A DNA stretch of 64,000 nucleotides from an uncultured Alphaproteobacteria bacterium (GTDB lineage: Bacteria > Pseudomonadota > Alphaproteobacteria > Rs-D84). The notes under the pieces were generated by a model. That model was given only the letters and a program-made list of their open reading frames with translations, searched no databases and was not told the DNA's origin. How positions within the stretch are numbered: the stretch's first letter is position 1; every line of letters begins with the position of its first letter. Of this stretch, positions 5,632 through 63,251 are shown one piece after another. Location: the NCBI GenBank assembly GCA_946623825.1, contig CAMORN010000002.1, forward strand, positions 20,237 to 84,236, in the 5' to 3' direction. Position numbers and translations under genes: made by a program.

Positions 5632-5758
5632 TTTTTATCCTTTTTTTTGTACCCTCGTGGCAATGCCTTGCCATTTCGGTTGACTCTATTTTGACAGATA
5701 AAAAAGAAAAATCAAGTTTTTATTGAATATTCGCTTTTTTCTGATTAAAGTATTTTTC

Positions 5759-6580: not shown

Positions 6581-7029
6581 TGTATGAATTAAAGACTTTT
6601 TTTAAAAATTCATTTCCTTTTTTAATTACCTTGTTTTTATGGTATTTATCCATTTCTTTTTGGAATCCGGCTGGAATATTGGCATTGATACCAATATTTT
6701 ACTATTCTTTTGTAAAACCAACAAAAGGATTTAGTTTATATGCGTTTTTATTCTGTTTTCTGATAGATTACAGATGTGATTTAACATTGCTTTGGTCTTT
6801 CATGTTTTGTTTATTTTACGCAATAAACGGCTTTCAAAAATTTATAGATTTAAGTTGCACAGATAATAACGCAATAAATGTATTTATGGTATTTATCGGA
6901 CTTGGAATTTTTGTTTTGACCTTGTCCCATTTTACATGGTTAAATTTAATACATAATATATGGTTGATGATATGGTTTTGGGTATTATATACACCAATAA
7001 CTGCACTAGATAAATGGGTAAATAAATGA
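6580..7029 (+). CDS. mreD: Rod shape-determining protein MreD (polytopic membrane protein)
   Basis: 149-aa highly hydrophobic protein with about 5 TM segments. ATGA-coupled to mreC and followed by mrdA. Confidence 0.6.
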   Translation: MYELKTFFKNSFPFLITLFLWYLSISFWNPAGILALIPIFYYSFVKPTKGFSLYAFLFCFLIDYRCDLTLLWSFMFCLFYAINGFQKFIDLSCTDNNAINVFMVFIGLGIFVLTLSHFTWLNLIHNIWLMIWFWVLYTPITALDKWVNK

Positions 7030-8792: not shown

Positions 8793-8793
8793 A

Positions 8794-27110: not shown

Positions 27111-27172
27111 AATACAATTTTGCCTTTATTTTATTTTATCTTTTGTGTTATAATACTTACACAGAAGAGAGA

Positions 27173-28423: not shown

Positions 28424-28439
28424 AAAAAGGAAAAATAAG

Positions 28440-29087
28440 ATGATTAATAAAATTCAGAAAATATTGTTATCAGTGTTGATTATATTTGGTTTTTCTGTCC
28501 CATCTTTTTCAGAAGAATTTATCGAAGAAGAAATTATCACAGAAGAAAATGCAGACCAAATATCTGCTGATGCGTTAAATAATTATGAAGTGAACGGTTC
28601 TTTGTTTGAAAGAATAACAACATTGGAACAAGAAAAAGTTGTTATGCAACTTGAAAAAGAAAGGGCACAGCTTGATTTAGAATTGGAAAGATTAAATGCT
28701 GAAAAAATAAAAATTCAAATGGAATTGGATACTTTGTCTGGGCGTGCAGAACAACAACAGCAAGAATTGGAAGCAACCAAGGCACAATTGGAAGCGCAAA
28801 CTGAAAAATTAAAACGTCAACTGGAAGAAGTAGAAGAAGAAAAACCTGTTGAAAGACCAACAAAAAAAGTTGTAGAAGGTGGTTTATCAAATCAATATAA
28901 ATTGGTTAATGTTATTGGTATTGGTAATCAATTACAGGCAACACTTGAAGAAGTTGCGACTGGTCAAAATAAACGCGTAAGTGTTGGTAAACAAATTGGT
29001 GGTTATATTGTAAAAAGCATTTCTTTAAATGACGGTATTATTTTTGAAAAAGACGGTCAGGAAGAAAACATAAATATTGGAAAATAA
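28440..29087 (+). CDS. PilP/GspC-like periplasmic protein (N-terminal anchor, coiled coil, C-terminal beta domain)
   Basis: N-terminal hydrophobic helix, acidic stretch, and a long coiled coil (LEKERAQLDLELERLNAEKIKIQMELD...). The C-terminal approximately 70 aa (YKLVNVIGIGNQLQATLEEVATGQNKRVSVGKQIGGYIVKSISLNDGIIFEKDG) resembles PilP/GspC homology-region domains. Confidence 0.35.
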   Translation: MINKIQKILLSVLIIFGFSVPSFSEEFIEEEIITEENADQISADALNNYEVNGSLFERITTLEQEKVVMQLEKERAQLDLELERLNAEKIKIQMELDTLSGRAEQQQQELEATKAQLEAQTEKLKRQLEEVEEEKPVERPTKKVVEGGLSNQYKLVNVIGIGNQLQATLEEVATGQNKRVSVGKQIGGYIVKSISLNDGIIFEKDGQEENINIGK

Positions 29088-29088
29088 T

Positions 29089-30717
29089 ATGCCAAACAAA
29101 GATGATAAATTTTTAACAGATGTTTCATCAAAACCGTCAATTCCGGCGGGACTTGAAAACGCAAACAGTAAAGATATTATTGATTATTTGTTTTCTAATC
29201 AAAACAGATTATTAACATCTTCCGTGGGTGAATTGGCTTTGCCGAAAGACACACAAAGTTTGATTGCATATTTTTCAAGTGGCGAAATTATTATTTCCAG
29301 AACACACAGATACGATGGTCGTGTTATTGCGTTTATAGATTTATTGCGTCAGAAAAATAAATTGATGAAACAACCTTTTTATTCTGATTTAGGTTTAATA
29401 TCAAACATTTATAAATATAACGACGAAAGGGTTGGCGGAATACATGCGCGTCCTGACTATGATAACCAGATGCAGAAAGATTTTGTTGATATTATTGCAC
29501 GTGCTGCATCGCAAAAGGTTTCTGATATTCACATAGAGGTCGCAGACCAAACAACAATTTATTTCCGTATAGATGGCAGTATGCAACCGGTTCTTGAATA
29601 CAATTCACAATGGGGTGAATCTTTCGTTCGTGCGGCGTTTGCATCGGCTGATATTTCTAATTCGAGTTATGCACAAAACGAATATCAAACCGCCCAGAAA
29701 GATGGACGAACACCATTGCGTGGAACAAAAGATTTATATTTGCCAAATGGTGTGTTGGGTATTCGTATGCAATTTAATCCGATTGCGTTTGGTTCGCAAT
29801 ATGTGGTTATGCGTTTGTTATATGATAACCCAAGCGAAGGTATAAAAACCGAACAAGAATTTAATGAATATGAACAAAAATTATTGATGCGTTTGCGTTC
29901 TGCACCAACTGGATTGGTTGTTGTTGCGGGTCCTACATCTTCTGGTAAATCTACGACATTGGTTCGCAATATGGCGTTGATGTTGAAAGAAAAAAGATAT
30001 GAAATAAATCTTATTACTGTGGAAGATCCTGCGGAACAAAAGATTTTTGGCGCACATCAAATGCCGGTTGTTAACACAACGAACGAAGAACAACGCGAAG
30101 AAAAATTTACAGAAGCCCTTGCGGCTGCTTTGCGAAGCGACCCTGATACATTAATGGTCGGTGAAATCAGAACATTATCTGCGGCGCAATTGACGGTCAA
30201 GGGCGCATTGTCTGGTCATAATGTGTGGACAACATTGCACGCTAATTCTGCGATGGGCGCGTTGACCCGTTTGTTGGATATGGGCGTGGAAGCTTTCAAA
30301 TTAAAAGATGAAACAATGATGCGTGGTTTGGTTTCTATGCGTTTATTTAAAAAATTGTGTCCACATTGTCGTGAAAGATTACTGGATAAAAGAAATCATC
30401 CGTCATATAACCGTGTTCGTGAAACATTGGGTGATTTAGGGTTGGCGCAAACATATGTTCGTGGTGTTGGTTGCGAATATTGTAATGGCACCGGAACAAT
30501 TGGTCGTGTCAAGGCGGGTGAAATTATTATCACAAACAGTGAATTTTTATCGCTTGCGCTGGCGGGGGAAACAGAAAGCGCAGTGAAATATTGGCTTGAA
30601 AAAATGAACGGACGAACACTGAAAGAATCTGCAATTGAATTGATGTTGCGTGGTATTATCGGTGTTGATGAATTGGAAGACAGGGTTGGTTTATTAGACA
30701 GACCATGGGTATATTAA
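29089..30717 (+). CDS. GspE/PilB/TcpT-family secretion ATPase
   Basis: Walker A VVAGPTSSGKSTTL, Asp box/Walker B, His box (MVGEIRTLSAAQL...GHNVWTTLHANSA), and a C-terminal tetracysteine motif CPHC...CEYCNGTG as in GspE/PilB. ATG 29089 directly follows the upstream stop. Confidence 0.85.
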   Translation: MPNKDDKFLTDVSSKPSIPAGLENANSKDIIDYLFSNQNRLLTSSVGELALPKDTQSLIAYFSSGEIIISRTHRYDGRVIAFIDLLRQKNKLMKQPFYSDLGLISNIYKYNDERVGGIHARPDYDNQMQKDFVDIIARAASQKVSDIHIEVADQTTIYFRIDGSMQPVLEYNSQWGESFVRAAFASADISNSSYAQNEYQTAQKDGRTPLRGTKDLYLPNGVLGIRMQFNPIAFGSQYVVMRLLYDNPSEGIKTEQEFNEYEQKLLMRLRSAPTGLVVVAGPTSSGKSTTLVRNMALMLKEKRYEINLITVEDPAEQKIFGAHQMPVVNTTNEEQREEKFTEALAAALRSDPDTLMVGEIRTLSAAQLTVKGALSGHNVWTTLHANSAMGALTRLLDMGVEAFKLKDETMMRGLVSMRLFKKLCPHCRERLLDKRNHPSYNRVRETLGDLGLAQTYVRGVGCEYCNGTGTIGRVKAGEIIITNSEFLSLALAGETESAVKYWLEKMNGRTLKESAIELMLRGIIGVDELEDRVGLLDRPWVY

Positions 30718-30720
30718 GAT

Positions 30721-31791
30721 ATGAATAAATTAGATTTGCTGTATGCAAAACTGGTTTTTAGAACAAATACTGATAAACGTATGGCGATTTCAAGAAAAAT
30801 CGCATCTCTGCTTCGTAATAATTTTACATTGATGGACGCGTTGCACCGTATTGAAATGATAGAATCATTTGACGGACGAAAACCAAATGAACCATTTGCA
30901 ATCGCAATGCGTGAAATTCAACAGAACCTTGAAAAAGGTATGACTTTCAGCGAGGCCACACGTGGTTGGGTTCCAAATGAAGAAACATTGCTTTTAATGT
31001 CTGGTAATGTGTCCAGTTTATTGGTTTCGCTTGAAAATGTATCGCGTGTTGTTGGTGGTATCAGAAGAATTAAACGCGCAATGTGGTCTGCGTTGGCATA
31101 TCCATTATTTTTGTTTTTATTGACGATTGGTATAATTATTATGGTTGGAATATATCTTGTTCCACCATTGGCACAAGCGGCGGGCAGCGATATTATATGG
31201 CGTGGCACGGCGGCGTCCCTGATATGGGTATCAGATTTTGCAAATAAATATTGGTATGTTTTTGCAGCCGGATTGGTTGGGGTGATATCTGTTGTATGGT
31301 TATCTTTGCCAATATGGACGGGAAAATTAAGAACCATGTTTGATAAATTACCACCATGGAATATTTATAAATTACAAACATCTGTTGGTTGGTTAATGTC
31401 ATTGGCTGCAATGGTGTCTGCGGGTGTGTCTGTGCCGGACGCGTTGCGTTTATTGATGGATTCATCAAACAGATATTTATCAAATATATTGGAAGAAACC
31501 CTGCATTATATTGCAAACGGTGAAAATTTGGGTTCTGCGCTGGCGTTGACTGGGAAAGATTTCCCAAATGGTGAAATCGTTGGCGATTTGATGATATATT
31601 CAGATATGAATGATTTCGCACAAAATCTGGACGATATCGCAAATGATTATATGGAAGAATCAGTTCGCCGTATGGAATCTATATCAAGTGTTTTAAACAG
31701 CATTGGTATTATATTAGTATCAATTATTATTGGGTGGATAGTTTTGGGCACTTTCCAGATGCAGGAACAAATCACCGCCGTTTTGATGTAA
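30721..31791 (+). CDS. GspF/PilC/TcpE-family inner-membrane platform protein
   Basis: 356-aa polytopic protein directly after the ATPase, with T2SS-F-like helical cytoplasmic segments alternating with TM helices. Size matches the type IVb platform proteins TcpE, BfpE and R64 PilR (about 340-365 aa). Confidence 0.55.
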   Translation: MNKLDLLYAKLVFRTNTDKRMAISRKIASLLRNNFTLMDALHRIEMIESFDGRKPNEPFAIAMREIQQNLEKGMTFSEATRGWVPNEETLLLMSGNVSSLLVSLENVSRVVGGIRRIKRAMWSALAYPLFLFLLTIGIIIMVGIYLVPPLAQAAGSDIIWRGTAASLIWVSDFANKYWYVFAAGLVGVISVVWLSLPIWTGKLRTMFDKLPPWNIYKLQTSVGWLMSLAAMVSAGVSVPDALRLLMDSSNRYLSNILEETLHYIANGENLGSALALTGKDFPNGEIVGDLMIYSDMNDFAQNLDDIANDYMEESVRRMESISSVLNSIGIILVSIIIGWIVLGTFQMQEQITAVLM

Positions 31792-40490: not shown

Positions 40491-43400
40491 CTATTTTGCA
40501 TTGTTTGCTTGTTCTATAGTTTCTTGGATAATTGCAGAAGCAATTTGTTTTTTCTGTTCTTCTGAATATTCGTGATTCGCCATTATTTCTGCCAGACGTT
40601 CAGATGCTTTTTTCCAAACTTTTTTAGCAGAATCTGTTTTTGCCTTGGCAAGTTTCTTCTTGGCAAGTTTAGCAGCATAATCAGCAGATGTTACATCTTC
40701 TGCTGTTGTGTCGCCGAATCCTTTGAAAAATGCAGATATTGCTTGGCCAAAGCGTCTTGCTTTTGTTTTTTGACCATCTGCTTCTATGCCTGCAACTTTT
40801 GTTTTGCCACGTGCAGTTGTTGCAGCTACATTTGCGGCACCTTGTGCTTCTAATATTCTTAATTTATTTTCTAATTCAGCCAATTTCAAACGGGCGTCCA
40901 TTGCGCTTTTACCACCCATGCTTTTGAATTTTTCAACTTCTTTTTCTAATAAATCAAGTTCTGCCAAACGACGGTCTGTGCTGTGTTGTTGGCCCATATC
41001 TTCCATTTTGAATTGTGCGCGCAATTCAATAATCTTTTTACCGATTTTGCCCATGGCTTTTTCGTCCAGATGAGCAATTGCAACACCATCTTTCAAAGAT
41101 ACATCTGCAAGATCTTCAATGCTTATGTCTTTGTATTCTTTGTTTAAAGCCTTTATGCCACGTGCGCGTTCAATGGCGCGTTTGTTTTTTGCTTTTACGT
41201 CTTCTATTTTCATTTGGTTTACTCCTTGTTGTATTTGTAGGTTAATATTATGAATTCCTTTTATAGTTTTTTGTGTACCGTGATACACGGATTGCATTAT
41301 TTTATAAGTTATATCTTTACATCTGCCGAAAAATCCGCGTTTTGCAGGTTTTTCTTCTGGTTCGTTTCCATCATTTGGTTTTGGTGGATTAACAATCACA
41401 GGTGTTTCTGGTTGTATATTTTCCGTTGGTGGCATTATAACAATACCGTCAGAAGGTCTGGCAACATTTCGTGGAATATCAGGTCTTTCATCAGTTTGTG
41501 TATTTTGGGTTCCGTCTATTTGATGATCAATTCTGTCGCCACGATCAGCCAATGCACCCGCGCGTTCACGCATACGGGTTAAATATTCATCAGGTACAAC
41601 ACGTGGTTCATATATTCCAAATGTTCCAATTCCAGCAGGGAAAGCCAATTCGTTTGGTGTAAATATACTGGTGGTTTCATTGGTTATGATTGGAATATCG
41701 TTAAATACCTGACCTGAATGTTCAACATATGTTGAATAAACATCATTTCCAGGAATCAAAACACCATTTGCATCGTATGTTGCGTTTGCTGGTAAATCAT
41801 AATTTACCGGTGCGTTTGGAATATATCCAACGGTGTTTATAGCAGAAATGTGTGGATTAAAATGTTCAAACGCTGCGAGTGCTTCTGGTGATAAATTTAT
41901 TTCAGAACCATTTATGGAACCACGTAACGCAGATAATGCATCTGAATCTAGGCCGATATTATGGAAATAACCATTCCCAAGATTATGGTCTGTTGCGTCA
42001 TGCCATGCTAATAAATAGCGAACTGCGTCATCATGGCTTAAACCTGCGTTCATTAAACCGCTAATTCTGGTGTCAAAAGATTGTTGTGTTTCCCAATTAT
42101 TATTCAACATCATTTCTTCGTGATGTTCAATAACACCATCATTATAAACGCGTTGTGTTGTTTCGGTTTGATTTATTGTTGTATGTTCTGTTTTGAATAA
42201 TGTTGAATCTGTGTTTTCGTTCACATAGTTTATAACACCATTCATGGCCCAACGACCAAACAAACCACCAGCGACCACAGAACCAGATACAGCCAAAGCG
42301 CCAGCCAATGCCTGACCACGGGTATAGCCAGAATTTATTGCGTCTTTATATGTCATAACACCAGATGATGTTCCGCCAACTGCCATTGCAGACAGGCCAA
42401 ACGCACCTGCTAATTCAGGGTTCCCTGTTGCCATACTGATTACAGCGGCAACACCCAAACCAGATGTTAAAGCCGGTCCCCAATTTCGTTTATCTGAAAA
42501 GAATTCTTTTATACCATGTGGTTTTCCTGCTTTCTTTTGTTCACGACGCCATTTAAATCCCTGAACAATCATATTGCCGATACCCAGTGTTGTTCCAATT
42601 GCGGCGCCTGCATATGCGATACCGGTTGCTTTTCCTATGAATGTAAGTCCAGCAGATACGGCGGTAGCAGTCAGGAAATTTTTCAAAGAACGACGAAAGA
42701 AACTGATTTTCTTTTTACGACCATCAGCACCGGTTTTTTCTGTTCTTGTTTTTGATAATTTATCAATATCATTAACAGCTTCAAAAGGACGCATAACAAT
42801 TTTTTTATCATTGCCGACATGTTCTGCCATCATTCCTGCAAAACCAGCAGCCTGATTAACCTGAGCGTCCAATGCGTCTTGATAACCTTCGTCTGTTATT
42901 TCTCCGCCATCTGTTTTAATAGAATCCCAAAATTCATCAACTTCCTGTTGGGTCAAAGGCTTGTGTTCTGCAACCCCAGAAACACTTTGGTCAGGCACAG
43001 ATATCTCCGCCATTTTCCATGGGATAGATTCTGATAATTCAGATTCAAGATTTATATCTTTAACTTCTGTTTCAAGGTCGCCCACATTTCGCATATTTAC
43101 ATCTGTTTTTGCCAATGATATTATGCGATTTAATCTGCCGTTCGGGTCCAATTTATACCCCGGTTTAAATTCAGATTGTGTTTTTCCGTTTTCATCTAAA
43201 AATTGAGGAATCGGTTTACCATTTTCGTCTAAAAACTTGTATTTAGATAATGTTGATAATATTTCATCGTTTATTTCAACATCTTTTAATGAATTTGCAA
43301 TTTCTTGCCAACGTTTATCCAGTTTTTCAGCATCTTCCGGTTTTAAATTTTTCAGATTCCACATATCTGAATACAAAGATACAATTTCTTCAAGACGAGC

Positions 43401-44228
43401 GAGAGATTCTGATATATTTTGTCTGACGGTTTCTTTGTATTTTTTTGTTGTATTATTGTCGGTTGTTTTTTCGCGGACATCTTTTTCGCGAATCTGACAC
43501 ATTTTGCGGTATCCAGCATAAACATCTGCAATATTTGATGGGTCAGAATAAAAATAATCAACTTTCTTTGCAAAATTATTTATCAGATAATCAATGCGTT
43601 TCGCCAATGTTAAAAATCTGTCTGCTGCATCTTTGTTGTTTTTGTCTTTCATATATTGTTCACGAGCAAACAGATACGCATCTGTTAAAATTTTTGGTGG
43701 AACCAATTCGAATAATTCATTGTTGCCAACAACTAAAGATATAAAATTATTTGCATATTGTTGACGTTGTGTTTCTGTCATATTTACAGAATTTATAAGT
43801 TCTGCGACCTGATTTGGAGTCAGATTTTTTTCGTCTGTATCAGACGGAATTAAACCCATGTCACGCAGAATACCCAAAGAAATTAAATCAAATTTAATCT
43901 GGTTTTGGTCCGATGTCAGCGAAAAAATTCTTTGATTATCAGCCGCGTTTTCTGCGTTTTCCAATGAATCAATAATTGATTGATATTTTGCCATTGCGCG
44001 TGCGCCAATTTCATTCAGGACATTATTTCCGTCTGCATCTTTTGTCATACAGCAAGTTTCTATGATTTTTTGCAATTCTGGCAACGCAGATTGTTCAATA
44101 TCAATTTTTTCATTAATAAAATTATCAAGTAATCTGTTAGCTATTTCGATAGATTCTTCGCGTGAATCTGGGGACGAATACATATCTAGAATTTCTTGTA
44201 ATCTAGATTTAGTATATACTAGTTGCAT
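40491..44228 (-). CDS. Large (about 1245 aa) hypothetical membrane protein with extended coiled-coil regions and a central Gly/Ala-rich multi-TM block
   Basis: Central segment ...TAVSAGLTFIGKATGIAYAGAAIGTTLGIGNMIVQG...LGVAAVISMATGNPELAGAFGLSAMAVGG...ALAGALAVSGSVVAGGLFG has 4-5 predicted TM helices. Long heptad-rich N- and C-terminal regions. The likely start is MQLVYTKS (ATG at 44228) with RBS AAAGGA; the ORF-track N-extension up to 44318 contains a TATAAT box. Confidence 0.5.
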   Translation of the reverse strand: MQLVYTKSRLQEILDMYSSPDSREESIEIANRLLDNFINEKIDIEQSALPELQKIIETCCMTKDADGNNVLNEIGARAMAKYQSIIDSLENAENAADNQRIFSLTSDQNQIKFDLISLGILRDMGLIPSDTDEKNLTPNQVAELINSVNMTETQRQQYANNFISLVVGNNELFELVPPKILTDAYLFAREQYMKDKNNKDAADRFLTLAKRIDYLINNFAKKVDYFYSDPSNIADVYAGYRKMCQIREKDVREKTTDNNTTKKYKETVRQNISESLARLEEIVSLYSDMWNLKNLKPEDAEKLDKRWQEIANSLKDVEINDEILSTLSKYKFLDENGKPIPQFLDENGKTQSEFKPGYKLDPNGRLNRIISLAKTDVNMRNVGDLETEVKDINLESELSESIPWKMAEISVPDQSVSGVAEHKPLTQQEVDEFWDSIKTDGGEITDEGYQDALDAQVNQAAGFAGMMAEHVGNDKKIVMRPFEAVNDIDKLSKTRTEKTGADGRKKKISFFRRSLKNFLTATAVSAGLTFIGKATGIAYAGAAIGTTLGIGNMIVQGFKWRREQKKAGKPHGIKEFFSDKRNWGPALTSGLGVAAVISMATGNPELAGAFGLSAMAVGGTSSGVMTYKDAINSGYTRGQALAGALAVSGSVVAGGLFGRWAMNGVINYVNENTDSTLFKTEHTTINQTETTQRVYNDGVIEHHEEMMLNNNWETQQSFDTRISGLMNAGLSHDDAVRYLLAWHDATDHNLGNGYFHNIGLDSDALSALRGSINGSEINLSPEALAAFEHFNPHISAINTVGYIPNAPVNYDLPANATYDANGVLIPGNDVYSTYVEHSGQVFNDIPIITNETTSIFTPNELAFPAGIGTFGIYEPRVVPDEYLTRMRERAGALADRGDRIDHQIDGTQNTQTDERPDIPRNVARPSDGIVIMPPTENIQPETPVIVNPPKPNDGNEPEEKPAKRGFFGRCKDITYKIMQSVYHGTQKTIKGIHNINLQIQQGVNQMKIEDVKAKNKRAIERARGIKALNKEYKDISIEDLADVSLKDGVAIAHLDEKAMGKIGKKIIELRAQFKMEDMGQQHSTDRRLAELDLLEKEVEKFKSMGGKSAMDARLKLAELENKLRILEAQGAANVAATTARGKTKVAGIEADGQKTKARRFGQAISAFFKGFGDTTAEDVTSADYAAKLAKKKLAKAKTDSAKKVWKKASERLAEIMANHEYSEEQKKQIASAIIQETIEQANNAK

Positions 44229-44378
44229 ATGTAAAAATCCTTTCTTTCGTTGACTCCGTTTGTGCTTCTTTTCTCTCCCCTTGCGATATATTATACACTT
44301 TTTTAGGTCTTTATTCAAGTATGTTGAAATACATAATATAGGTTTATATATAATTAAAAATCTGGTATAATACGCGGT

Positions 44379-46229
44379 ATGAACAAAGATTTAGATAATT
44401 ATTTATATTATTCCGATGTTATGACGAAAATTTCAGATTCTGTTGATGATTCTGAAAATGACATAATAGACATTTTAAATGTTTATTACAAAGAATTGCG
44501 TACATTAGCATTTATGAATTATTGTAATAATGATGTTTTGCCAGATGCTGTAAATACATATCTGAAAATTCTTTTTAAATTGCCGAAACAGGCTGCAATA
44601 GAATCTTTTAATTTTATGTATGATAATTATGAGAAAATCATAACAAAAAAATCTGTAATATTTATTGTTGGAAAATATCCTGAAACAGCGGATTCTGTAT
44701 TTGAAAAAATATATAAATCTTTGAATGAAAAATATTCTGAAAATAAATTGTTGTTTTTATATTTGGTTGTTCAGAACACCAGTGGCGCAAAAAAGAAATT
44801 TTTCTTGAAACAGATTTTTGATTATTTGAATAATGGTTCAAATATTATAAGAATTTCTAAATTATTAAGTTTTCATAATGAAAATAATTTTGTCCTTGAT
44901 ATAGATGATTCTGTTATCGATGTTTTGATAGAAATGGCTGATATTGCATTAATGTCGCCAATGCTGAATACAGAAATTGTTGAATCTATAATAAATCTGA
45001 TGGCAAGAATATATAAAAAGCCAGAACACAAAAACAGCGCGGAAAAAATTCTTGAAAATATAAAAACCAGAACAGATATAATAAATTCACATCAAAAAAG
45101 AACTATTGCCAGAATTTTTAATGATACAGAAAATTTGCGCAGTGATGTTGAAATTGCAAAACGGGTGGAAAAAACCGCAATAAATGAATATGGATACCAG
45201 ATTGTAGAACAAATTCCGGTTGATGAAGTATGTTGTTTAATATTGGGTGGAAATGGTGCAGATAATTCAAAAAAAGCAAACGGATATATGAAAGAAATTG
45301 AATATTTGCTGAATACGAATGGTTTAAATACGGCTGTTAATGTTTATGGTGTTGCGTATGATTTTGGTGAATCTGAAGATGTGAAATATTCATTTAACGA
45401 TGGGCGTGCGCGTATAAGAATGGCTTTCGAACACGGTCGTCGCAGATTGCATTCTTTGGTGTCGCACAAACTTGAAAGATATGTTTCTGAAAAACAATTT
45501 AATAATGATTCAGAAGAACAGAAAGACCCAAGATATATTAAAAAAATATTTGATATTGCGATTTTACCACGAATATCCCAAGACGGTAAAAAGATAGATG
45601 TTGCCTTGGCAAAAAGGTATATTCGAAATTTAAATATTTTTGTGCATTGTCATGGTGGATATACTTTCATAAAATTGGAAGAAATGATGCAGGCAAAAAT
45701 GGCTGAATTGGGCTATACAAAGCAAGAAATGAAAGATATTCAAAAACAATTATTGTGTATTGGTTTTGCACCATATTGTCCGTTGGGAATATCAAAATCT
45801 ACATTTATCAGTTTTTGTTCTGCGATGGATTTTAACAGCAAATATTTTAATTTGTTCGAATTATTGGGGCGTCCTTTGTTCAAAGAAGGTATCGCATGGT
45901 TCCCAGATAATTTAGGAAATGTTTTTGTTGTTTCTGAAATTGGTCAGAATAGAAATATAGAAGAACATATGGCTTATATTGGTACTGCGGGTGGAATTGG
46001 TATGTCGGACGCGGGTAAAATAATGGTTCAAATGGAAAAGAACGCAATTGTAAACGGAATTAAAAATTCATTAGACAATGGAACGGTTCCAAATGTGAAA
46101 CAATTGGTTGCGGGTGATGATATTGAAATGAGACACGAATTTGAAACAGCGGTAATAAATGGTCGTGAAAAATATAAAGCCATGTTGGAACGCATAAAAA
46201 AAGAGAGAGAAAATGGCAGAAAGATTTAA
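44379..46229 (+). CDS. Hypothetical protein (616 aa)
   Basis: Long ORF with host-typical codon usage, divergent from the 1245-aa gene. No family recognised. Confidence 0.4.
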   Translation: MNKDLDNYLYYSDVMTKISDSVDDSENDIIDILNVYYKELRTLAFMNYCNNDVLPDAVNTYLKILFKLPKQAAIESFNFMYDNYEKIITKKSVIFIVGKYPETADSVFEKIYKSLNEKYSENKLLFLYLVVQNTSGAKKKFFLKQIFDYLNNGSNIIRISKLLSFHNENNFVLDIDDSVIDVLIEMADIALMSPMLNTEIVESIINLMARIYKKPEHKNSAEKILENIKTRTDIINSHQKRTIARIFNDTENLRSDVEIAKRVEKTAINEYGYQIVEQIPVDEVCCLILGGNGADNSKKANGYMKEIEYLLNTNGLNTAVNVYGVAYDFGESEDVKYSFNDGRARIRMAFEHGRRRLHSLVSHKLERYVSEKQFNNDSEEQKDPRYIKKIFDIAILPRISQDGKKIDVALAKRYIRNLNIFVHCHGGYTFIKLEEMMQAKMAELGYTKQEMKDIQKQLLCIGFAPYCPLGISKSTFISFCSAMDFNSKYFNLFELLGRPLFKEGIAWFPDNLGNVFVVSEIGQNRNIEEHMAYIGTAGGIGMSDAGKIMVQMEKNAIVNGIKNSLDNGTVPNVKQLVAGDDIEMRHEFETAVINGREKYKAMLERIKKERENGRKI

Positions 46230-46353: not shown

Positions 46354-46827
46354 ATGTCAAGACAAATACAAATCAGACGCGGAAGCGCAACTGAAAATGA
46401 TAATTTTACCGGTGTAATCGGTGAAATCACCATGGATACAACAAATAAAACCCTGCGTGTTCATGACGGCGAAACAGTTGGCGGAACGGTATTGGCAAAA
46501 CAAAGCGAAATACCAGACATAGCCAATGCAGATTATGTTATTGAATTTCAACGCCCGAATGCCACGAATAATTATACATGGTATCGGAAATATAAATCTG
46601 GTTGGGTTGAAATGGGTGGTGAAATAACAACAAATATAAACACAGTTGCTTTACCAATCGAAATGGCAGACAATCATTACATATTATTAAGAACACAGGT
46701 TGGTTCAGCAATGCAATCACAATATCCAGCATGGGTTGCGGGATACAATTCCAAAACAACTACAAATTTTACTATATCGAATATATCTGTAAATAATATA
46801 TGGTATGCGTGTGGTATGGCCGCATAA
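46354..46827 (+). CDS. Phage tail-fibre-like protein with Mtd_N-type N-terminal domain (orphan)
   Basis: IQIRRGSATENDNFTGVIGEITMDTTNKTLRVHDGETVGGTVLAKQSE parallels the N-terminal domain of the Bordetella phage major tropism determinant and related tail fibres (VQFRRGTTAQ...TGA.GEl.vDTDk.tlvvHDG.T.GG..LA). RBS TGGAG. No other phage genes nearby. Confidence 0.45.
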   Translation: MSRQIQIRRGSATENDNFTGVIGEITMDTTNKTLRVHDGETVGGTVLAKQSEIPDIANADYVIEFQRPNATNNYTWYRKYKSGWVEMGGEITTNINTVALPIEMADNHYILLRTQVGSAMQSQYPAWVAGYNSKTTTNFTISNISVNNIWYACGMAA

Positions 46828-56181: not shown

Positions 56182-58176
56182 ATGAAAACAAAAGAAAGTG
56201 TTTTTTCGTTAGAATCAGATTATGCCCCAATGGGTGATCAACCAACGGCGATTGCTGAATTGGTTGCTGGTGTTAATGAGGGTAAAAAATCTCAGGTTTT
56301 ATTGGGGGTAACTGGGTCTGGGAAAACATTTACGATGGCAAATGTTATCCAAGAATTATCCCGTCCAACTATAATTATGGCACCAAATAAAATTTTGGCT
56401 GCGCAATTATATACGGAAATGAAATCTTTCTTTCCAAGAAATCATGTTGAATATTTCGTTTCTTTTTATGATTACTATCAACCAGAAGCATATGTTCCAA
56501 CCACAGATACATATATAGATAAAGATGCGGCTATTAATGAACAATTGGACCGTATGCGACACAGTGCAACACGCGCGATGCTTGAAGAAAAAGATGTTAT
56601 TGTTGTTTCATCTGTGTCGTCTATTTACGGTATTGGTTCGCCAGAACAATATGCCCAGATGAAATTAGTATTGAATACCAGTGATAAAATATCCGAAAAA
56701 GATGTTGCGCGGTATTTGGTAGATATTCAATATAAAAGAAACGATATGGGATTTTCGCGCGGCGAATTCCGTGTTCGTGGTGATACATTAGATGTTTTCC
56801 CATCTCATTCTCAGGACAGGGCATGGAAAATATCTTTTTTTGGAGATGAAGTTGATGAAATCTGGGAAATAGATGTTTTGACTGGTAATAAATTACAAAA
56901 ATTAAGCAGAATTTCTATTTATCCAAATACACACTATGCGACACCTATGCCATCTGTATTACAGGCGTTGGATCAAATTAAAATAGATTTAGATGAACGG
57001 TTAAAATATTTTCATGATAATATGAAATATATAGAAGAACAGAGATTACGCGAACGTGTTAATTTTGATATTGAAATGATGGAATCTACGGGAACTTGTC
57101 GCGGAATTGAAAATTATTCAAGATATATGACGGGCAGATTACCGGGACAACCACCGCCAACTTTGTTTGAATATTTACCAGATGATGCGGTTTTGTTTAT
57201 AGATGAAAGCCATGTTACTGTGCCACAAATTGGCGCTATGTCGCGTGGTGATCGCGCACGCAAAGAAACATTAGCGCAATATGGTTTCAGATTACCATCA
57301 TGTGTTGATAACAGACCACTTACATTTGATGAATGGGACGCGTTGCGCCCACAGACAATATTTGTGTCTGCTACACCTGCACAATGGGAATTGGAACAAT
57401 CTGGTGGAATTGTATCTGAACAGGTTATTCGTCCAACTGGATTATTAGACCCAATTTGTGATGTTCGTCCAACACAAAATCAGGTTGATGATTTATTAAA
57501 TCAGGTTAAACAGACAAAAGGTCGTGTTATTGTAACAACTTTGACCAAGAAAATGGCTGAACAATTGACAGATTATTTTGTTGAAAATGGTGTTCGTGCG
57601 CGTTATCTGCACAGTGATATAGAAACACTTGAAAGAATTGATTTGTTGCGTGATTTAAGATTGGGAAAATACGATGTTTTGGTTGGAATTAATTTGTTAA
57701 GGGAAGGTCTGGATGTCCCAGAATGCGAATTGGTTGCAATTATGGATGCTGATAAAGAAGGATTTTTGCGTTCAACCCGTTCGTTGATTCAGACAATTGG
57801 TCGTGCGGCTAGAAATGCAAATGGTCGTGTTATTTTATATGCAGATAAGATAACCGATTCTATGAAAGAAGCATTGACCGAGACAGCCCGTCGTCGTGAA
57901 AAACAACAAAAATATAACGAAGAACATGGAATAGTACCTAAAACAATTGCGAAATCTGTTTTTGACGAGGTTGTAATTGATCAAGGAAAAACTGACAAAG
58001 CAAAAAGATTTGTGTATAATAAGAATGGTGTTATGGATGCTGAATCTTTACGCAAGGAAATAAAAGCTTTGACCAAGAAAATGTTAAAGCATGCTGAAAA
58101 TCTTGAATTTGAAGAAGCGGCAGAAATACGCGATACAATTCATAAACTCGAAGATGATTTATTATTATTGGAATAA
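56182..58176 (+). CDS. uvrB: Excinuclease ABC subunit B
   Basis: Helicase motifs ([19 protein letters not shown]) and a C-terminal UVR domain ([17 protein letters not shown]). Confidence 0.95.
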
Positions 58177-58180
58177 AAAA

Positions 58181-58585
58181 ATGGAACAGAAAACTTTTAT
58201 TTTAAATAATGTTGAAGAAACAAGAAACTTTGCTCGTGAATTTGCAAAAACATTGCATGCACCAATAACTGTCGCTTTGCATGGTGATTTGGGTATGGGA
58301 AAAAGTGAAATTGCGCGCACAATTATAAAAACTTTGTGTGGCGAAGACACGGTTGTGCCAAGTCCTACATTTACATTGGTTCAAAATTATGATGGTATTT
58401 CACATTTTGATTTATACAGAATAGGGGACGAATCTGAATTGGAAGAAATTGGTCTGCAATATGCCATAGATAATGATATAACATTAATAGAATGGCCAGA
58501 TATCGCAAAAGATAAATTGCCATCGAATACCATACACATTTATATAACACAAAATGGTGATGGGCGTAAATTAGTGCTTCAATAA
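58181..58585 (+). CDS. tsaE: tRNA t6A37 threonylcarbamoyladenosine biosynthesis protein TsaE
   Basis: ITVALHGDLGMGKSEIART P-loop typical of TsaE/YjeE; about 134 aa from ATG 58181. The ORF-track start at 58091 overlaps uvrB. Confidence 0.8.
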   Translation: MEQKTFILNNVEETRNFAREFAKTLHAPITVALHGDLGMGKSEIARTIIKTLCGEDTVVPSPTFTLVQNYDGISHFDLYRIGDESELEEIGLQYAIDNDITLIEWPDIAKDKLPSNTIHIYITQNGDGRKLVLQ

Positions 58586-60355
58586 ATTTATGATTGCCAA
58601 TCTGAAATCTGGTGCATTCGCAAGATAAGAACCGGATACTAATAAATTCGCACCAGCATCCCAGCATAATTTTGCAGTATCTGGATTTATTCCACCATCA
58701 ACACTGATTAAATATTTTAAACCGTGTTTTTTTCTGGTGTAATCAAGCGCTTTGATTTTTTCAAGAACACTGTCTTCAAATTGTTGTCCCGCCGCCCCAG
58801 GTTTCACAGCCATAACCATAACTTCGTCAATGAAAGGCAACATATCTTTTATAAATGTTGCAGGAATATCTGGATTTAATGCAATTCCACAACGTTTTCC
58901 TGCTTTTTTTATAATTTTGATTGCGTTTTCTGTCCCCGGTGTTTCTGCAGGAATTATGATTGTATCTGCGCCGGCATTTATTGCGTCAGCTGCAACAATA
59001 GCAGGTGTTTGAACCATCAAATGTGTATGCAGATGCATACCTGTTTTTAATCTGATTTTTTCAAGTTCTTCTATGCTGCCAGCCATTCTGTCTACATATA
59101 AACCATCCATAATATCAACATGAATCATGGAAATGCCGCCAGATGCAAACATTGTATATGTTGATTTTTCATTCATATCAAAACAAAGTGTGCTTGGCAT
59201 GATTGGAACCAATTTATGTTTAGCTTTGATTTTTTTTCTTTTGAATTTTTTGAATATTTTATGAAATATTTCGGTTCTTGCATTTTGTTTTTTTATAAAT
59301 GTTTCGCGTTCTTCTTTGTGAGATTCCCATACATAATTTAATAACGCATTTAATGAAGCCATTTCACCGTGATTTTCAGTTGGTAATCCAAAATGTTTTT
59401 CCAAAAAAGAACCAATGTTTCGAATAGATGCACCACCACCAGAAAATATAATTTTGTTTGGTTTATATCTTTCAATGTATCTGGCAGATTCTTGTTTTAT
59501 CAAATTAATTAATTCAAGTATTTGTGGTTGAAAAACATCGTTTATGTCGGATCTTTGTATAGAAGCGAATCTGCCTGTTTCAGCCGCCGGACGGAATCTG
59601 TCATTTTCATTTGGGACGGTATCTGATATAGATATTTTTAAATCATCAGCATCTTTTTCAGATATATTTAATTTATCAGCCAATGCCATTGTAATATCGT
59701 TTTGTCCAAAAGGAATTTTTTTGATAAATAATGGTCCTTTGAAAAACCAGAGTGATACAGTTGTGTATTCTGCACCAAAATCTATAAACAAAGTTTTACC
59801 GTTTTTTGGCATATAAAGTTGACCTTGTAAAAAACATGGGTCAAAAAATCCGATTGGTTGTATGTGTGCGTTATGTAAAATATCAGTTATTTCTATTGTT
59901 TTATCTTCTGGGTAAGAAATAACACTGAAAACGCTTTTTAATTCTGTATCAACCTGATTTATTGGACTGGTTTTTATATCTGATTTAGTAGGCGTTCTGA
60001 ATAATACAGGTATAATATGCATTTTATAAAAACCGTCTTTGTTCGGGATTTTATCAATTTGCTTTTTTAAATCATATTCTGTTATTTGATGCGGAACACC
60101 AAATTGTTTTATTTGGGTTGATAATTGAAAATCAAGTTCACCAAAATTACCGGTTATATACGCGTTGTTAAAATGTGTCCCCAATTTTTGTTCAAGTTCG
60201 TCTATCACACTTTTTAAGGCAAAATTTGTGTTTTTATTTTTAACAAAATGAGCATAAGATTGTTCCATTTTGCCATTTATAACACGCGTTGCCAAACCGC
60301 ATACACCGTATGAACCAATATCTAGACATAAAATATACGATTTAGAAAAATTCAT
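58571..60355 (-). CDS. ftsA: FtsA (actin-like cell-division protein) fused in frame to ribulose-phosphate 3-epimerase
   Basis: Residues 1-360 follow the FtsA layout (LCLDIGSYGVCGL; LFIDFGAEYTTVSLWF..IPFGQNDITMALADKLNISEKDADDLK; IIFSGGGASIRNIGSFLEKHFGLPT). A basic amphipathic tail IFHKIFKKFKRKKIKAKHK follows. Residues 386-594 are a complete Rpe (MPSTLCFDMN...HVDIMDGLYV...MVMAVKPGAAGQQF...SVDGGIN) beginning at an internal ATG (59198-59200) with no intervening stop. Coupled to ftsQ upstream. Confidence 0.7.
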   Translation of the reverse strand: MNFSKSYILCLDIGSYGVCGLATRVINGKMEQSYAHFVKNKNTNFALKSVIDELEQKLGTHFNNAYITGNFGELDFQLSTQIKQFGVPHQITEYDLKKQIDKIPNKDGFYKMHIIPVLFRTPTKSDIKTSPINQVDTELKSVFSVISYPEDKTIEITDILHNAHIQPIGFFDPCFLQGQLYMPKNGKTLFIDFGAEYTTVSLWFFKGPLFIKKIPFGQNDITMALADKLNISEKDADDLKISISDTVPNENDRFRPAAETGRFASIQRSDINDVFQPQILELINLIKQESARYIERYKPNKIIFSGGGASIRNIGSFLEKHFGLPTENHGEMASLNALLNYVWESHKEERETFIKKQNARTEIFHKIFKKFKRKKIKAKHKLVPIMPSTLCFDMNEKSTYTMFASGGISMIHVDIMDGLYVDRMAGSIEELEKIRLKTGMHLHTHLMVQTPAIVAADAINAGADTIIIPAETPGTENAIKIIKKAGKRCGIALNPDIPATFIKDMLPFIDEVMVMAVKPGAAGQQFEDSVLEKIKALDYTRKKHGLKYLISVDGGINPDTAKLCWDAGANLLVSGSYLANAPDFRLAIINLLKH

Positions 60356-61095
60356 TTTCGTGTTTTTACTAAAATTCTTGCGTCGTTTCTTAAATCTATA
60401 ATTTCAATTTCACGCGACAATAATTTATGTGTTTGGTTTAATATGTTAATTTTATTTACAGCTGTCGCAGGATTGTTTTCTGGTAAGTAAATAGTTATTC
60501 CATTTTTTGTGTGTAAATTCCAACGTCTTGATTCTATGTAATCCATATAATCAATATGTTCAGATAACACAGAAACTGTTTTTATGATTTCTGTTAAATC
60601 GTCAGGCATATCTTCAAGATTGCCACGGAAAACAATCGAATTTTCGTCCCTTGTTTCAGATGGTGTGTCTATTTTTGTTTTGTCTTCTGATAAAGGATAA
60701 TAATACACACCATCAAAAAATAGGGCAATCGCATGATGTTGTTTCGTTTGTATGATTATATTCCCATTAGGCATACGACGGGTTGCAGAATTTTTTACCC
60801 CAGGTACCTTTAACATACGGTTGTTTATTTGATTTAAATCGACGGAACGAATATCTGTGCCATATGGAATACCAACCGCCAATTTTAACGGTTCCATATC
60901 AGTTTCTTTTGTGTCGCTGAATATGTCGACTTGTTTTATTTGAGATATTGGACCGCGTCCCATTTGACTGGTTATAATTCTGGTTGAAAAATAGACAGCC
61001 AAAACAATGGATACAATAAAATATAGCCAAAAGAATATAGTTTTCTTCATGCCAACAATTATATCATATTTTTTAGTAAATAGCCAACATAACAC
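60352..61095 (-). CDS. ftsQ: Cell division protein FtsQ
   Basis: N-terminal TM, POTRA domain, and the typical C-terminus ...LSREIEIIDLRNDARILVK; 247 aa. Confidence 0.7.
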   Translation of the reverse strand: MLCWLFTKKYDIIVGMKKTIFFWLYFIVSIVLAVYFSTRIITSQMGRGPISQIKQVDIFSDTKETDMEPLKLAVGIPYGTDIRSVDLNQINNRMLKVPGVKNSATRRMPNGNIIIQTKQHHAIALFFDGVYYYPLSEDKTKIDTPSETRDENSIVFRGNLEDMPDDLTEIIKTVSVLSEHIDYMDYIESRRWNLHTKNGITIYLPENNPATAVNKINILNQTHKLLSREIEIIDLRNDARILVKTRK

Positions 61096-61101
61096 GCAAA
61101 A

Positions 61102-61476
61102 TTATTTTGCTCGCAACAAATAACCGCGTTTTAACATACACTTACGATAATATCCGGTTGTTTTAGAGGCACTGTTAGGTGGTACAGATAACAGAGCCCT
61201 TTGTCCGACATCTTTGTATTCATTAGATTGAAATGTGACCCACAAACCGTCCCAATCAGGCATCTGGGCGCTTTGATTCGGGGATAACAGCTTTGCAATT
61301 CGGGAACGCGGAATATAATTGTTTGTTTTTATTCCAAGGCATGATTTGTGGTCGCGAACAAATTGTTCGGTTGTAACCGCATCATTTTCCCAATTTAATA
61401 TTGTGGCGTCATCTATAGACCCACGATTTGCAGATGCACACGCTGTTAAACCAATCAATAAAAATAAATATTTCAT
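61102..61476 (-). CDS. Small lipoprotein (hypothetical)
   Basis: MKYLFLLIGLTAC lipobox signal from ATG 61476. The ORF-track N-extension is unlikely. Confidence 0.4.
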   Translation of the reverse strand: MKYLFLLIGLTACASANRGSIDDATILNWENDAVTTEQFVRDHKSCLGIKTNNYIPRSRIAKLLSPNQSAQMPDWDGLWVTFQSNEYKDVGQRALLSVPPNSASKTTGYYRKCMLKRGYLLRAK

Positions 61477-61559
61477 TCTCATTTCTTTCTTATTATAATT
61501 TATTTGCCTTTTTGTGGCAATAGTTTTTATAATGTAAAAAACATAGTGGGGAAAAAGAG

Positions 61560-61883
61560 ATGGCAATATCAATTCAAAATTATATAAAATTGGCTAATTT
61601 TTACAACGAAATGTCGCGCATTTTGTCGGCTGTGTGTGTTGAAAAAGGCGGGATTGCGCTGGAAAATTATGTTGGTCGTTTCTTTGCTGCAGATGTTCTT
61701 GAATATATTGTGGAATATGGAAACAGATTAAAAAAGTCTGGGGCGCAATTGACACCAGATATAACAAATGCGATGGATTTGTTTGAAAAAAAATTTGAAA
61801 GTGTGAAACATCTTGTTACCCCAACACAAAAACCTATATACGAAATGACGCTAGAAGAATTTGAAAAAATTATGAATATCTAG
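61560..61883 (+). CDS. Hypothetical protein (107 aa)
   Basis: ORF with plausible RBS GGGGAAAAAGAG. No family recognised. Confidence 0.3.
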   Translation: MAISIQNYIKLANFYNEMSRILSAVCVEKGGIALENYVGRFFAADVLEYIVEYGNRLKKSGAQLTPDITNAMDLFEKKFESVKHLVTPTQKPIYEMTLEEFEKIMNI

Positions 61884-61919
61884 TATAAATATGAATATAA
61901 ACATAAAAAAGGAAAGAAA

Positions 61920-63251
61920 ATGGCACAAAAACAAGCAAAAAACATGATATTTTTTATCGTAGGTTTGTGTTCTGTATTTGTTTACGGATGTGCAAACAAA
62001 CGACAAGATATGACTGTGTTTGATACGGTAAATGTTGTCCAAAATTCTGTTATAAATGAAAAATCTGTGCCTATTTTTCCTAAAAAGGCAGCTTTGACAA
62101 CAGATACAGCACAACATTTTGCGCTGGATTTGCCAAAGAGATGCACTGTAGATTGGGATAATCAAAGTGTGGTTTCTGTATTGCCAGAAGAAAAAATAGA
62201 AATTGTTCGTATTAACAACGGTGATCCATTACCAGATTTGAAGGTTTCTGATTTTGATTTCAAGAAAATGTATGTCAAAGATGTTCTTGAAAAATTATTG
62301 GCGGATACAGATGTTTCTGTATTGGAAGACCAAAAGACATTTGAAAAAATCACTGGTTCTATTAAAACAAGTTCATTGGCTGATGCGGTTGATTTAATTA
62401 CAAAATTGGGACGCGTTTATTATTCTTATGATAAAGAATTCGGTGAATTACACATAACTGGTCATGGTAAATTTATGATAAAAATGCCAAAAGATGAAAC
62501 TATGATAATGGCGATATTAGATGCTATGCGTGGTGCAGATGTGCTGAATTTATTGGTTAACTGGCAAGACAAAACAGTTGTTTTCGAAGGTAATTATCAA
62601 ACACAAAGAGAGGTTGCAAAAATCATTGCAGATGTCAGTGCTAAAAAATATGTAATCGCATGGGATATGGATGTGTATCGTGTATATCCAAAAATAGACA
62701 ATCCGATTGTTTGGATGAATATGTTACCTGCGTTTGGTGAAAAAAATATTCATATGTCTATTCCTGGGGTTGTAGGACGCGCGTTGGTGGTAAGTCCTGA
62801 AGTCAATACAAAAACATTGCAACAATTCATTTCTCAACAGGCAAAAATGGTATTGATATCTCAGGGTACTTTTGCGTTGCCTAATGGTTGGCAATCAAGA
62901 TTTGATATTGGTCAATGCAGCAAAGAAGATCGTCTCGAAACAGATTTGATTATTGGTGCAACTGGTACATATGGTAATTATGGCGGATATAATAAAATAG
63001 ATGCCAAGATTGTATTAAGTACCAGCAACGGCGAATTAACATCTTTCAAAATAATGTCAGATGTTGGTGATAATTATGTGTTTGTTGGTATTCCGACGCA
63101 CGCGTTTGTAACAACACCGGAAACTTTGATAAGTCCTTTTGCAGAATTGGTGGTGTTTGTAAGTCCGCGCTTAATATCAATTGTTGATGCAAATAAAACT
63201 GATTCTAAACAATTGGTTGGTGATAATTTGCGTGATTTCTTGAACCAATAA
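61920..63251 (+). CDS. Secretin-like outer-membrane lipoprotein (candidate type IVb pilus / T2SS secretin, PilN/TcpC/BfpB-like)
   Basis: Lipoprotein signal (FIVGLCSVFVYGC). N-terminal region resembling secretin N-domains (VKDVLEKLLADTDVSVL...IMAILDAMRGADVLNLLVNWQDKTVVFEG). C-terminus ...ELVVFVSPRLISIVD resembles the conserved secretin C-terminal strand (e.g. TELLVFITPRII). Confidence 0.35.
   Translation: MAQKQAKNMIFFIVGLCSVFVYGCANKRQDMTVFDTVNVVQNSVINEKSVPIFPKKAALTTDTAQHFALDLPKRCTVDWDNQSVVSVLPEEKIEIVRINNGDPLPDLKVSDFDFKKMYVKDVLEKLLADTDVSVLEDQKTFEKITGSIKTSSLADAVDLITKLGRVYYSYDKEFGELHITGHGKFMIKMPKDETMIMAILDAMRGADVLNLLVNWQDKTVVFEGNYQTQREVAKIIADVSAKKYVIAWDMDVYRVYPKIDNPIVWMNMLPAFGEKNIHMSIPGVVGRALVVSPEVNTKTLQQFISQQAKMVLISQGTFALPNGWQSRFDIGQCSKEDRLETDLIIGATGTYGNYGGYNKIDAKIVLSTSNGELTSFKIMSDVGDNYVFVGIPTHAFVTTPETLISPFAELVVFVSPRLISIVDANKTDSKQLVGDNLRDFLNQ

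Follow-up and report, generated by a model that had tools for sequence, protein, structure and literature searches.

A single-gene fusion of the cell division protein FtsA with ribulose-phosphate 3-epimerase conserved in the alphaproteobacterial order Rs-D84

Are a cell division protein and an enzyme of central metabolism made as one polypeptide in some bacteria, or does a gene that joins them reflect a lost stop codon or a faulty sequence? The question is raised by a 64-kb stretch of DNA (contig CAMORN010000002.1, hereafter the window) from an uncultured alphaproteobacterium of the order Rs-D84, in which a single open reading frame (ORF) of 594 amino acids (aa) encodes the divisome protein FtsA followed by a complete ribulose-phosphate 3-epimerase (Rpe). 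The initial annotation of the locus had left the choice between a genuine bifunctional fusion in a reduced genome, a stop-codon loss and a sequencing error. ORF analysis together with Pfam and NCBIfam searches recovered the ORF exactly as it had been described, without a stop codon between the two parts, and the general picture that emerged from comparison with its relatives is that we are very probably dealing with a genuine, anciently fixed fusion, one polypeptide representing both the FtsA of this lineage, i.e., the membrane anchor of the divisome, and a catalytically competent Rpe.

A homology search with the fusion protein yielded 726 matches. The best 120 of these 726 cluster representatives are 586–595 aa long, 56–100% identical to the query and contain both Pfam domains in every case; clustering at 90% identity places the fusion ORF in more than 120 protein clusters. 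When GTDB species were scanned with one genome each, 291 stretches encoding relatives were retrieved, the best 80 of which were inspected and are referred to here as the 80 orthologues. One uninterrupted ORF (589–604 aa, 46–84% identity) is present in all 79 complete loci, the 80th being cut by a contig end, and not one of the 80 has a stop codon at the junction. Ratios of non-synonymous to synonymous substitutions (dN/dS, calculated for close pairs according to Nei-Gojobori) amount to 0.03–0.10 for the FtsA core and 0.02–0.07 for Rpe; both halves are under strong purifying selection. The scanned records are titled “Candidatus Enterousia” or uncultured Alphaproteobacteria and were obtained from rumen, colon or faecal material of hosts including ruminants, horse and chicken; one of the genomes is a circular chromosome of 958,618 bp, and sheep-rumen assemblies contain the window's own genes again. 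Enterousia is placed in the GTDB order Rs-D84, whose genomes are smaller than about 1 Mb (PMC12306168). A genuine fusion in a reduced genome, as considered in the initial annotation, is the correct reading, given Rs-D84/Enterousia genome sizes of less than 1 Mb and the maintenance of the ORF across species.

Deeper relatives were collected with the FtsA half alone (aa 1–381) as the query in an exhaustive phmmer search against 1.84 billion representatives, which gave 516 matches; matches were classified as fused or unfused only when they were long enough to be judged. All such matches with E-values better than 1e-11 run on into Rpe, 19 of them being full-length (542–623 aa), and two further fused matches are fragments that break off inside Rpe. 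The identity of the FtsA half falls to about 27% in fused relatives, the GC content of genomes with fused genes extends from 25.6% to 49%, and the named deep members are metagenome-assembled genomes (MAGs) of an “Alphaproteobacteria bacterium” or a “Rickettsiales bacterium”. Unfused FtsA proteins start at an E-value of about 1e-11, with 23–28% identity, lengths of 396–420 aa and classical C-terminal amphipathic tails. The locus is almost certainly not the product of faulty sequencing or assembly, or of a stop codon lost in one strain between two normally separate genes, since the same ORF has been assembled independently in many projects, with many assemblers and from many hosts, the comparison of orthologous loci that had been called for earlier found it uninterrupted in the relatives, and the 79 complete loci, the more than 120 clusters, the deep fused relatives and the strong purifying selection on either side of the junction exclude a sequencing error and a recent lesion alike.

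The N-terminal half matches the Pfam model for FtsA (PF14450) at aa 190–327 (37.1 bits; cutoff 31.8), and two fused relatives, P0137 and P0141, match the Pfam domain SHS2_FTSA. In an AlphaFold2 model of the fusion, the mean predicted local distance difference test score (pLDDT) is 82; aa 1–345 reach about 90 and contain a strand-helix-strand-strand unit at approximately aa 75–149 as assigned by DSSP, and beyond this core the model continues with a helix (aa 347–369), a disordered segment (aa 372–391) and a TIM barrel. When the model was compared with the PDB by Foldseek, the best 19 fold matches were all FtsA (template modelling (TM) scores on the target of 0.68–0.77), followed by PilM (0.53–0.68), and a family profile run against PDB sequences gave FtsA (5e-13) before PilM (6e-6) and MreB (1e-3). 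The nucleotide-binding motifs phosphate 1 (DxG), phosphate 2 (DxG..T) and adenosine (GGG) are represented by D12/G14, D192/G194 and G306–G308, which are invariant in all 80 orthologues; with T198 included, every position is invariant or conservatively substituted in the same set. The protein thus resembles canonical FtsA from E. coli, Thermotoga maritima and Vibrio maritimus (PDB 7Q6D, 1E4F/4A2A and 7Q6F) in its fold with a 1C subdomain, in the three intact motifs, in the amphipathic helix after the core and in the location of its gene directly after ftsQ. The membrane-targeting helix of FtsA is normally found at the extreme C-terminus; in the fusion, however, the amphipathic helix is internal and followed by a 213-aa enzyme domain, and the protein also differs from its canonical counterparts in being only about 14–17% identical to solved FtsAs, in scoring below the cutoff of the NCBIfam FtsA equivalog TIGR01174 and in having no ftsZ after its gene. 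Bacteroidota-type long FtsA proteins (P0158, P0160 and P0161; 559–591 aa) have a long C-terminal extension and are similar in total length, but the extension is of low complexity, charged and without an enzyme domain, and these proteins are unrelated to the fused clade. A P-x-E-x-D-R-F-x-P-A motif (aa 248–257, nucleotides (nt) ~59585–59614; E250, D252, F254, P256) is invariant in the fused clade and lies in a loop of subdomain 2B modelled with low confidence. In solved FtsA structures this region contributes to filament contacts and to the binding of FtsZ, and the loop may be a partner-binding site.

For the C-terminal half, the scores are 148 bits with PF00834 (Ribul_P_3_epim, aa 386–578; cutoff 21.1) and 178.5 bits with NF004076, an NCBIfam ribulose-phosphate 3-epimerase subfamily (cutoff 165), whereas the Rpe equivalog TIGR01163 gives 154.5 bits, which is below its cutoff of 212.6. 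The match to PDB entry 2FLI reaches 9e-42 with the profile and a TM score on the target of 0.82–0.85 with Foldseek (root mean square deviation 2.7–3.4, 33% identity). Invariant in 80/80 orthologues are H412, D414, H445 and D553, which we take from the 2FLI and 3OVP structures to be metal ligands and acid-base residues, as well as M416, M447 and M515, presumably the methionine cage. Judged by the curated models and by these residues, the Rpe half is predicted to be catalytically competent. It shares the (beta/alpha)8 barrel, about 33% identity, all metal-binding and catalytic residues and the methionine cage with the stand-alone enzymes from Streptococcus pyogenes (2FLI), Synechocystis (1TQJ) and potato chloroplasts (1RPX), and, as they do, belongs above the Pfam and NCBIfam subfamily cutoffs. 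Unlike them, it is tied at its N-terminus to FtsA and a membrane-proximal polybasic segment, practically without a spacer; its rate of evolution is higher than that of ordinary Rpe, and it stays under the TIGR01163 cutoff.

The two halves are joined by a linker (aa 346–381) that measures 35–37 residues in all 80 orthologues and is never interrupted, with dN/dS values of 0.04–0.48. Amphipathicity was calculated as the hydrophobic moment over 14-mers. The value of 0.71 for aa 361–374 (TEIFHKIFKKFKRK) is the highest in the protein, the mean for the 80 orthologues is 0.67, and the membrane-targeting sequence of E. coli FtsA, run through the same calculation, reaches 0.62. The last 14 linker residues before Rpe carry a net charge of +2 to +9 (mean +6.6 in the 80 orthologues), and this polybasic run abuts strand beta1 of Rpe (L382-VPIMPS) without any spacer. 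Fold search and hydrophobic-moment analysis together confirm the original description of an FtsA whose tail is basic and amphipathic. The helix that once targeted FtsA to the membrane from its C-terminus would have been kept as an internal in-plane anchor, and together with the polybasic run it would keep both the FtsA and the Rpe domain at the cytoplasmic surface of the cell membrane. An internal ATG (59198–59200), at which rpe had been proposed to start, does exist as codon 386. Among the 80 orthologues, however, this codon is ATG in 38, TTA in 22, TTG in 16 and CTG in four cases and is preceded by a Shine-Dalgarno-like motif only once, so that a conserved internal start giving free Rpe is unlikely and was ruled out as a conserved feature; according to alignment with Rpe models, the Rpe domain begins about four residues before the ATG, at L382.

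How could such a gene have originated? The best-scoring unfused match, P0150 (MCT4552437.1; loci L088/L089), stems from a 1.05-Mb contig of an alphaproteobacterial MAG, on which ftsQ (232 aa), ftsA (420 aa) and rpe (224 aa) are separate genes with no ftsZ next to them, and TAA, 16 nt and a GGAGG site lie between ftsA and rpe. When the C-terminal end of this FtsA (KILAKVKKWIDDNF) and the N-terminus of this Rpe (MFKKRKQKIQISPS, MFKKRKQK) are joined, amphipathic helix, basic run and beta1 follow each other as in the fusion linker. As the two genes are adjacent and their joined ends mimic the linker, the simplest origin is that an ancestor with ftsA and rpe side by side lost the stop codon and the short spacer between them, and the sequences suggest that this would have been the founding event. 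The stop-codon loss considered in the initial annotation is therefore probably right in this ancient sense only, as indicated by one unfused relative with adjacent ftsA and rpe, and not as a recent lesion. The unfused locus has the gene order ftsQ-ftsA-rpe and the lack of ftsZ downstream in common with the window, from which it is distinguished by two genes with a stop codon, the 16-nt spacer and a ribosome-binding site, and by identities of 22% (FtsA) and 33% (Rpe) that do not make it specifically the closest relative. No relatives of this unfused FtsA were found in the metagenome scan. In two other unfused relatives, ftsA is followed by a gene of the SIS sugar-isomerase type (L091) or by a hydrolase gene (L092) and not by ftsZ. 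The former, encoding a 215-aa SIS-domain protein of the sugar-phosphate isomerase type, overlaps ftsA by 14 nt (L091, 1425–3249) on a reduced, alphaproteobacterium-like contig with 27% GC and a faint match to a TLC ATP/ADP translocase, and provides another example of ftsA being followed immediately by the gene of a sugar-phosphate enzyme.

Several observations, on the origin, the product, the divergence of the FtsA half and the whereabouts of ftsZ, weigh against the reading of the locus as an ancient fusion of two working proteins. The Rpe of L088 scores about 150 bits with ordinary Rpe enzymes compared with 76–119 bits with the fused domains, and its FtsA resembles the fusions no more closely than does the FtsA of the canonical ddl-ftsQ-ftsA-ftsZ locus L090. 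Its domains are thus not specifically closer to the fused ones, and what links it to a pre-fusion state is the gene order alone; the lack of a sister signal for either domain is explained by the long branches of the fused domains, and the adjacency of ftsA and rpe in L088 may be convergent rather than ancestral. The single, uncleaved polypeptide is a prediction from the ORFs, and a second, stand-alone ftsA or rpe may be located elsewhere in these genomes. Furthermore, the term bifunctional is not true of every member of the family. In P0129, Rpe residues are lost (H to N, H to N and D to Y) and the FtsA motifs are largely kept, while P0138, P0141 and P0145, with Rpe intact, have Y instead of D12 and H or N instead of D192. 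Both halves are degenerate in P0134 (25.6% GC; L086, L087 and L095 10001–11770), which is nevertheless intact with 589 aa in 10 strain variants. A comparison of two of these strains, based on 24 non-synonymous and 14 synonymous changes, gave a dN/dS of 0.39 (0.28 in the FtsA-like and 0.57 in the Rpe-like half), compared with 0.04–0.23 for most of the genes around the fusion, and this relaxed constraint fits a residual structural role or slow decay alike.

The divergence of the FtsA half is obvious from its score with TIGR01174 (54.6 bits, far below the cutoff of 175.85) and from a single-sequence search of the PDB, in which PilM (2YCH, 25 bits) came out marginally above FtsA (22 bits), an ambiguity that itself shows how strongly this FtsA has diverged. 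Both results would be expected if the N-terminal half were a paralogue, an FtsA/PilM-like actin ATPase serving a different function, rather than the FtsA of the cell, and if the true ftsA-ftsZ pair were located elsewhere; such an assignment would also be in line with the type IV pilus/type II secretion-like system encoded in the window (PilO-like protein, T2SSE, T2SSF) and with the fact that ftsZ is not adjacent to the fusion. We nevertheless regard it as highly unlikely, because the family profile favours FtsA, the FtsA fold matches exceed those of PilM, SHS2_FTSA is recognized in two fused relatives, and the exhaustive search with the FtsA half revealed no closer class of unfused FtsA. Moreover, the gene overlaps ftsQ, follows an ftsI-like penicillin-binding protein (PBP) gene and ftsQ in L093, and is not found among pilN/O/P/Q. 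Identity with PilM proper is ruled out by the neighbours ftsQ, tsaE and uvrB in combination with the family profile and the fold search.

The statement that ftsZ is absent downstream holds true, as convergent tsaE and uvrB take its place, both on the plus strand. The window and 84 loci (~1.6 Mb) were scanned for FtsZ with motifs and phmmer. Neither a signature nor a match was found in the 64 kb of the window, nor was ftsZ seen within 10 kb on either side of the fusion in any of the 80 genome loci or in the further fused contexts that were inspected, L084, L086, L093 and L095 among them. Among called genes, matches to Tubulin/FtsZ_C were absent from fused and unfused contexts with the exception of L090, and a homology search with the L090 FtsZ led mostly to Rhodobacterales and, in addition, to a group of 501–504 aa, the contigs of which agree in length with none of those that bear the fusion. 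Since FtsA and FtsQ are retained in the lineage, with an FtsI-like PBP in addition in L093, ftsZ is in all likelihood encoded elsewhere in these genomes. We know of no FtsA outside FtsZ-containing bacteria, and the extreme alternative, genomes that lack FtsZ altogether and whose division is organized by FtsA::Rpe alone, is most improbable.

If the fusion is the FtsA and an Rpe of this lineage, as we consider very probable, it would still act in division together with an FtsZ encoded elsewhere and, at the same time, supply the interconversion of ribulose 5-phosphate and xylulose 5-phosphate in a truncated non-oxidative pentose-phosphate pathway. Rs-D84 members have been reported to lack amino-acid, nucleotide and lipid biosynthesis and to have an incomplete glycolysis as well as genes for the non-oxidative pentose-phosphate pathway, transaldolase excepted (PMC12306168). 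The covalent link as such may be an adaptation or may simply be tolerated. A tentative and on balance doubtful proposal is that the Rpe barrel functions as a component of the division anchor and that the fusion was selected for itself, either because an Rpe that is an obligate oligomer clusters FtsA and multiplies its membrane contacts, or because occupancy by pentose phosphates modulates FtsA. Architecture and linker length are indeed maintained down to about 27% identity of the FtsA half and across 26–49% GC, and the architecture persists even where the catalytic residues of Rpe (P0129) or both active sites (P0134, in its 10 intact strain variants) have degenerated. In addition, the top PDB sequence matches, 2FLI, 7B1W and 1TQJ, are entries deposited with 6–12 chains, which we take to be hexameric Rpe enzymes, and one unfused relative keeps rpe directly after ftsA while another has the SIS sugar-phosphate isomerase gene in this place. 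On the other hand, oligomerization and regulation by the barrel are hypothetical, and the disordered junction (aa 372–391) and a modest predicted TM score of 0.61 in the AlphaFold2 model provide no confident arrangement of the domains relative to each other. The relaxed constraint on P0134, with 38 substitutions between the two strains, is explained as well by decay as by a structural role, and neighbouring genes in reduced genomes may become fused without any selective effect. That the Rpe barrel of Rs-D84 is a selected divisome-anchor module, controlling the clustering of FtsA by oligomerization at the membrane or by pentose-phosphate sensing, is rather unlikely; if true, nutrient status, possibly in the form of ribose scavenged from nucleosides, would be hard-wired to cell division.

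Metabolic enzymes that moonlight in the control of division are represented by UgtP in B. subtilis, OpgH in E. coli, and GdhZ and KidO in Caulobacter. The fusion is similar to these in that an enzyme of central metabolism is physically associated with the FtsZ/FtsA machinery. The established examples, however, are separate proteins that bind FtsZ reversibly and in response to metabolites, whereas the link is covalent in the fusion and involves FtsA, and its regulatory effect is hypothetical.

The features of the locus are collected in Table 1. The initial annotation was also right about the coupling to ftsQ, the end of which overlaps the start of the fusion by 4 nt (tcat on the plus strand, i.e., ATGA on the minus strand), and about the absence of ddl upstream of ftsQ. 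The 3' ends of tsaE and the fusion overlap by 15 nt (58571–58585; 8 nt in L086), which points to a compact genome. Furthermore, ftsQ lies directly upstream of the fusion in L084, L086, L093 and L095, and the convergent tsaE arrangement recurs in L086 and L095. The P0134 locus, whose fusion is 30% identical, comprises genes for an ABC-FtsX-like protein and ORFs of 439–444 aa and 107 aa, then a 126-aa ORF, FtsQ and the fusion, then TsaE and UvrB, and finally AsmA. This is exactly the order in the window, so that synteny is conserved. In P0137/L093 a 97-aa ORF, an FtsI-like PBP, FtsQ and the fusion follow each other.

Table 1. Position of the ftsA::rpe fusion, its parts and its neighbours in the window
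Feature	Position (nt)	Strand	Remarks
ftsA::rpe fusion ORF	58571..60355	-	594 aa and stop codon; same architecture in 80 genomes and >120 clusters
FtsA core, aa 1–345	59321..60355	-	actin-like ATPase; 1C (SHS2-type) subdomain at ~aa 75–149
Linker, aa 346–381	59213..59320	-	long helix ending amphipathic, then polybasic run abutting Rpe strand beta1
Putative internal membrane-targeting amphipathic helix, aa 361–374, TEIFHKIFKKFKRK	59234..59275	-	highest hydrophobic moment in the protein
Rpe domain, aa 382–594	58574..59212	-	(beta/alpha)8 barrel; H412, D414, H445, D553, M416, M447, M515
ftsQ	60352..61095	-	POTRA_1 and FtsQ_DivIB_C (Pfam)
ORF without family match upstream of ftsQ	61102..61572	-	156 aa as listed; N-terminus resembling a signal peptide with lipobox (LIGLTAC)
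tsaE, convergent	58091..58585	+	probable start at ~58187, an internal Met
uvrB	56182..58176	+	upstream of tsaE; identified by translation and by UvrB Pfam domains of the syntenic gene in L086

The true start of the ORF next to ftsQ is likely at ~61482, corresponding to 126 aa as called in relatives. ORFs of 126–127 aa, matched by position, precede ftsQ directly on the same strand in L084 (7960–8343), L086 (8942–9322) and L095, thus even in lineages that have diverged deeply. The lipobox-like ORF has no match in Pfam or NCBIfam and could encode an undescribed divisome-associated lipoprotein. Beside the ftsQ-ftsA::rpe operon, a divergent Lol/MacB-like cluster consists of a 107-aa ORF, an ORF of 435–444 aa, a MacB_PCD/FtsX permease and an ABC ATPase (window from 61560–63251 (+) onward, L081 659–4338, L084 4308–7887, L086 5237–8876); it recurs in the lineages of the window, P0134 and P0141, and its 107-aa and 435–444-aa ORFs have no family match.

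Farther away, an elongasome cluster (5723–9936, plus strand) comprises mreC, a 149-aa ORF that is possibly mreD, pbp2 and rodA; mreB is not adjacent, and upstream, on the opposite strand, lies rplT. The plus strand also encodes a VirB4-type type IV secretion ATPase (16555–18969) and a pilus-type system with PilO-like, T2SSE and T2SSF proteins (27143–31791), and the retention of such systems in a very small genome fits the partner-dependent lifestyle proposed for Rs-D84. A 157-aa ORF with an Mtd_N domain (Major tropism determinant N-terminal domain, 9.4e-12; 46354–46827, plus strand) adjoins ORFs of 1275 aa (40491–44318, minus strand) and 616 aa (44379–46229, plus strand), neither of which has a Pfam match, and this region could be phage-derived or a receptor-binding module of the diversity-generating type.

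Full-text literature searches that combined FtsA with epimerase and epimerase with divisome, or used Enterousia and Rs-D84, yielded no description of the fusion, and it is not mentioned in the genomics paper on the order (PMC12306168). In public databases, the fusion is labelled only as “ribulose-phosphate 3-epimerase” or “hypothetical protein”, and for this reason automated surveys could score ftsA as absent from the order. Both domain families are well known; what is new is the architecture, an FtsA with an internalized membrane helix that bears a metabolic enzyme and is fixed across the order. An internal helix that carries a folded enzyme puts ideas on the anchoring and orientation of FtsA to the test, and the fusion offers a concrete construct for studies on the coupling of metabolism and division in a heterologous host. 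Interest would rise further if the coupling were functional or if ftsZ were truly missing. The adjacency of ftsA and rpe in an unfused relative suggests that the association of the two genes is older than the fusion, which now represents a natural, order-wide covalent link between an enzyme of central metabolism and the division machinery in organisms that may need metabolites derived from their partners.

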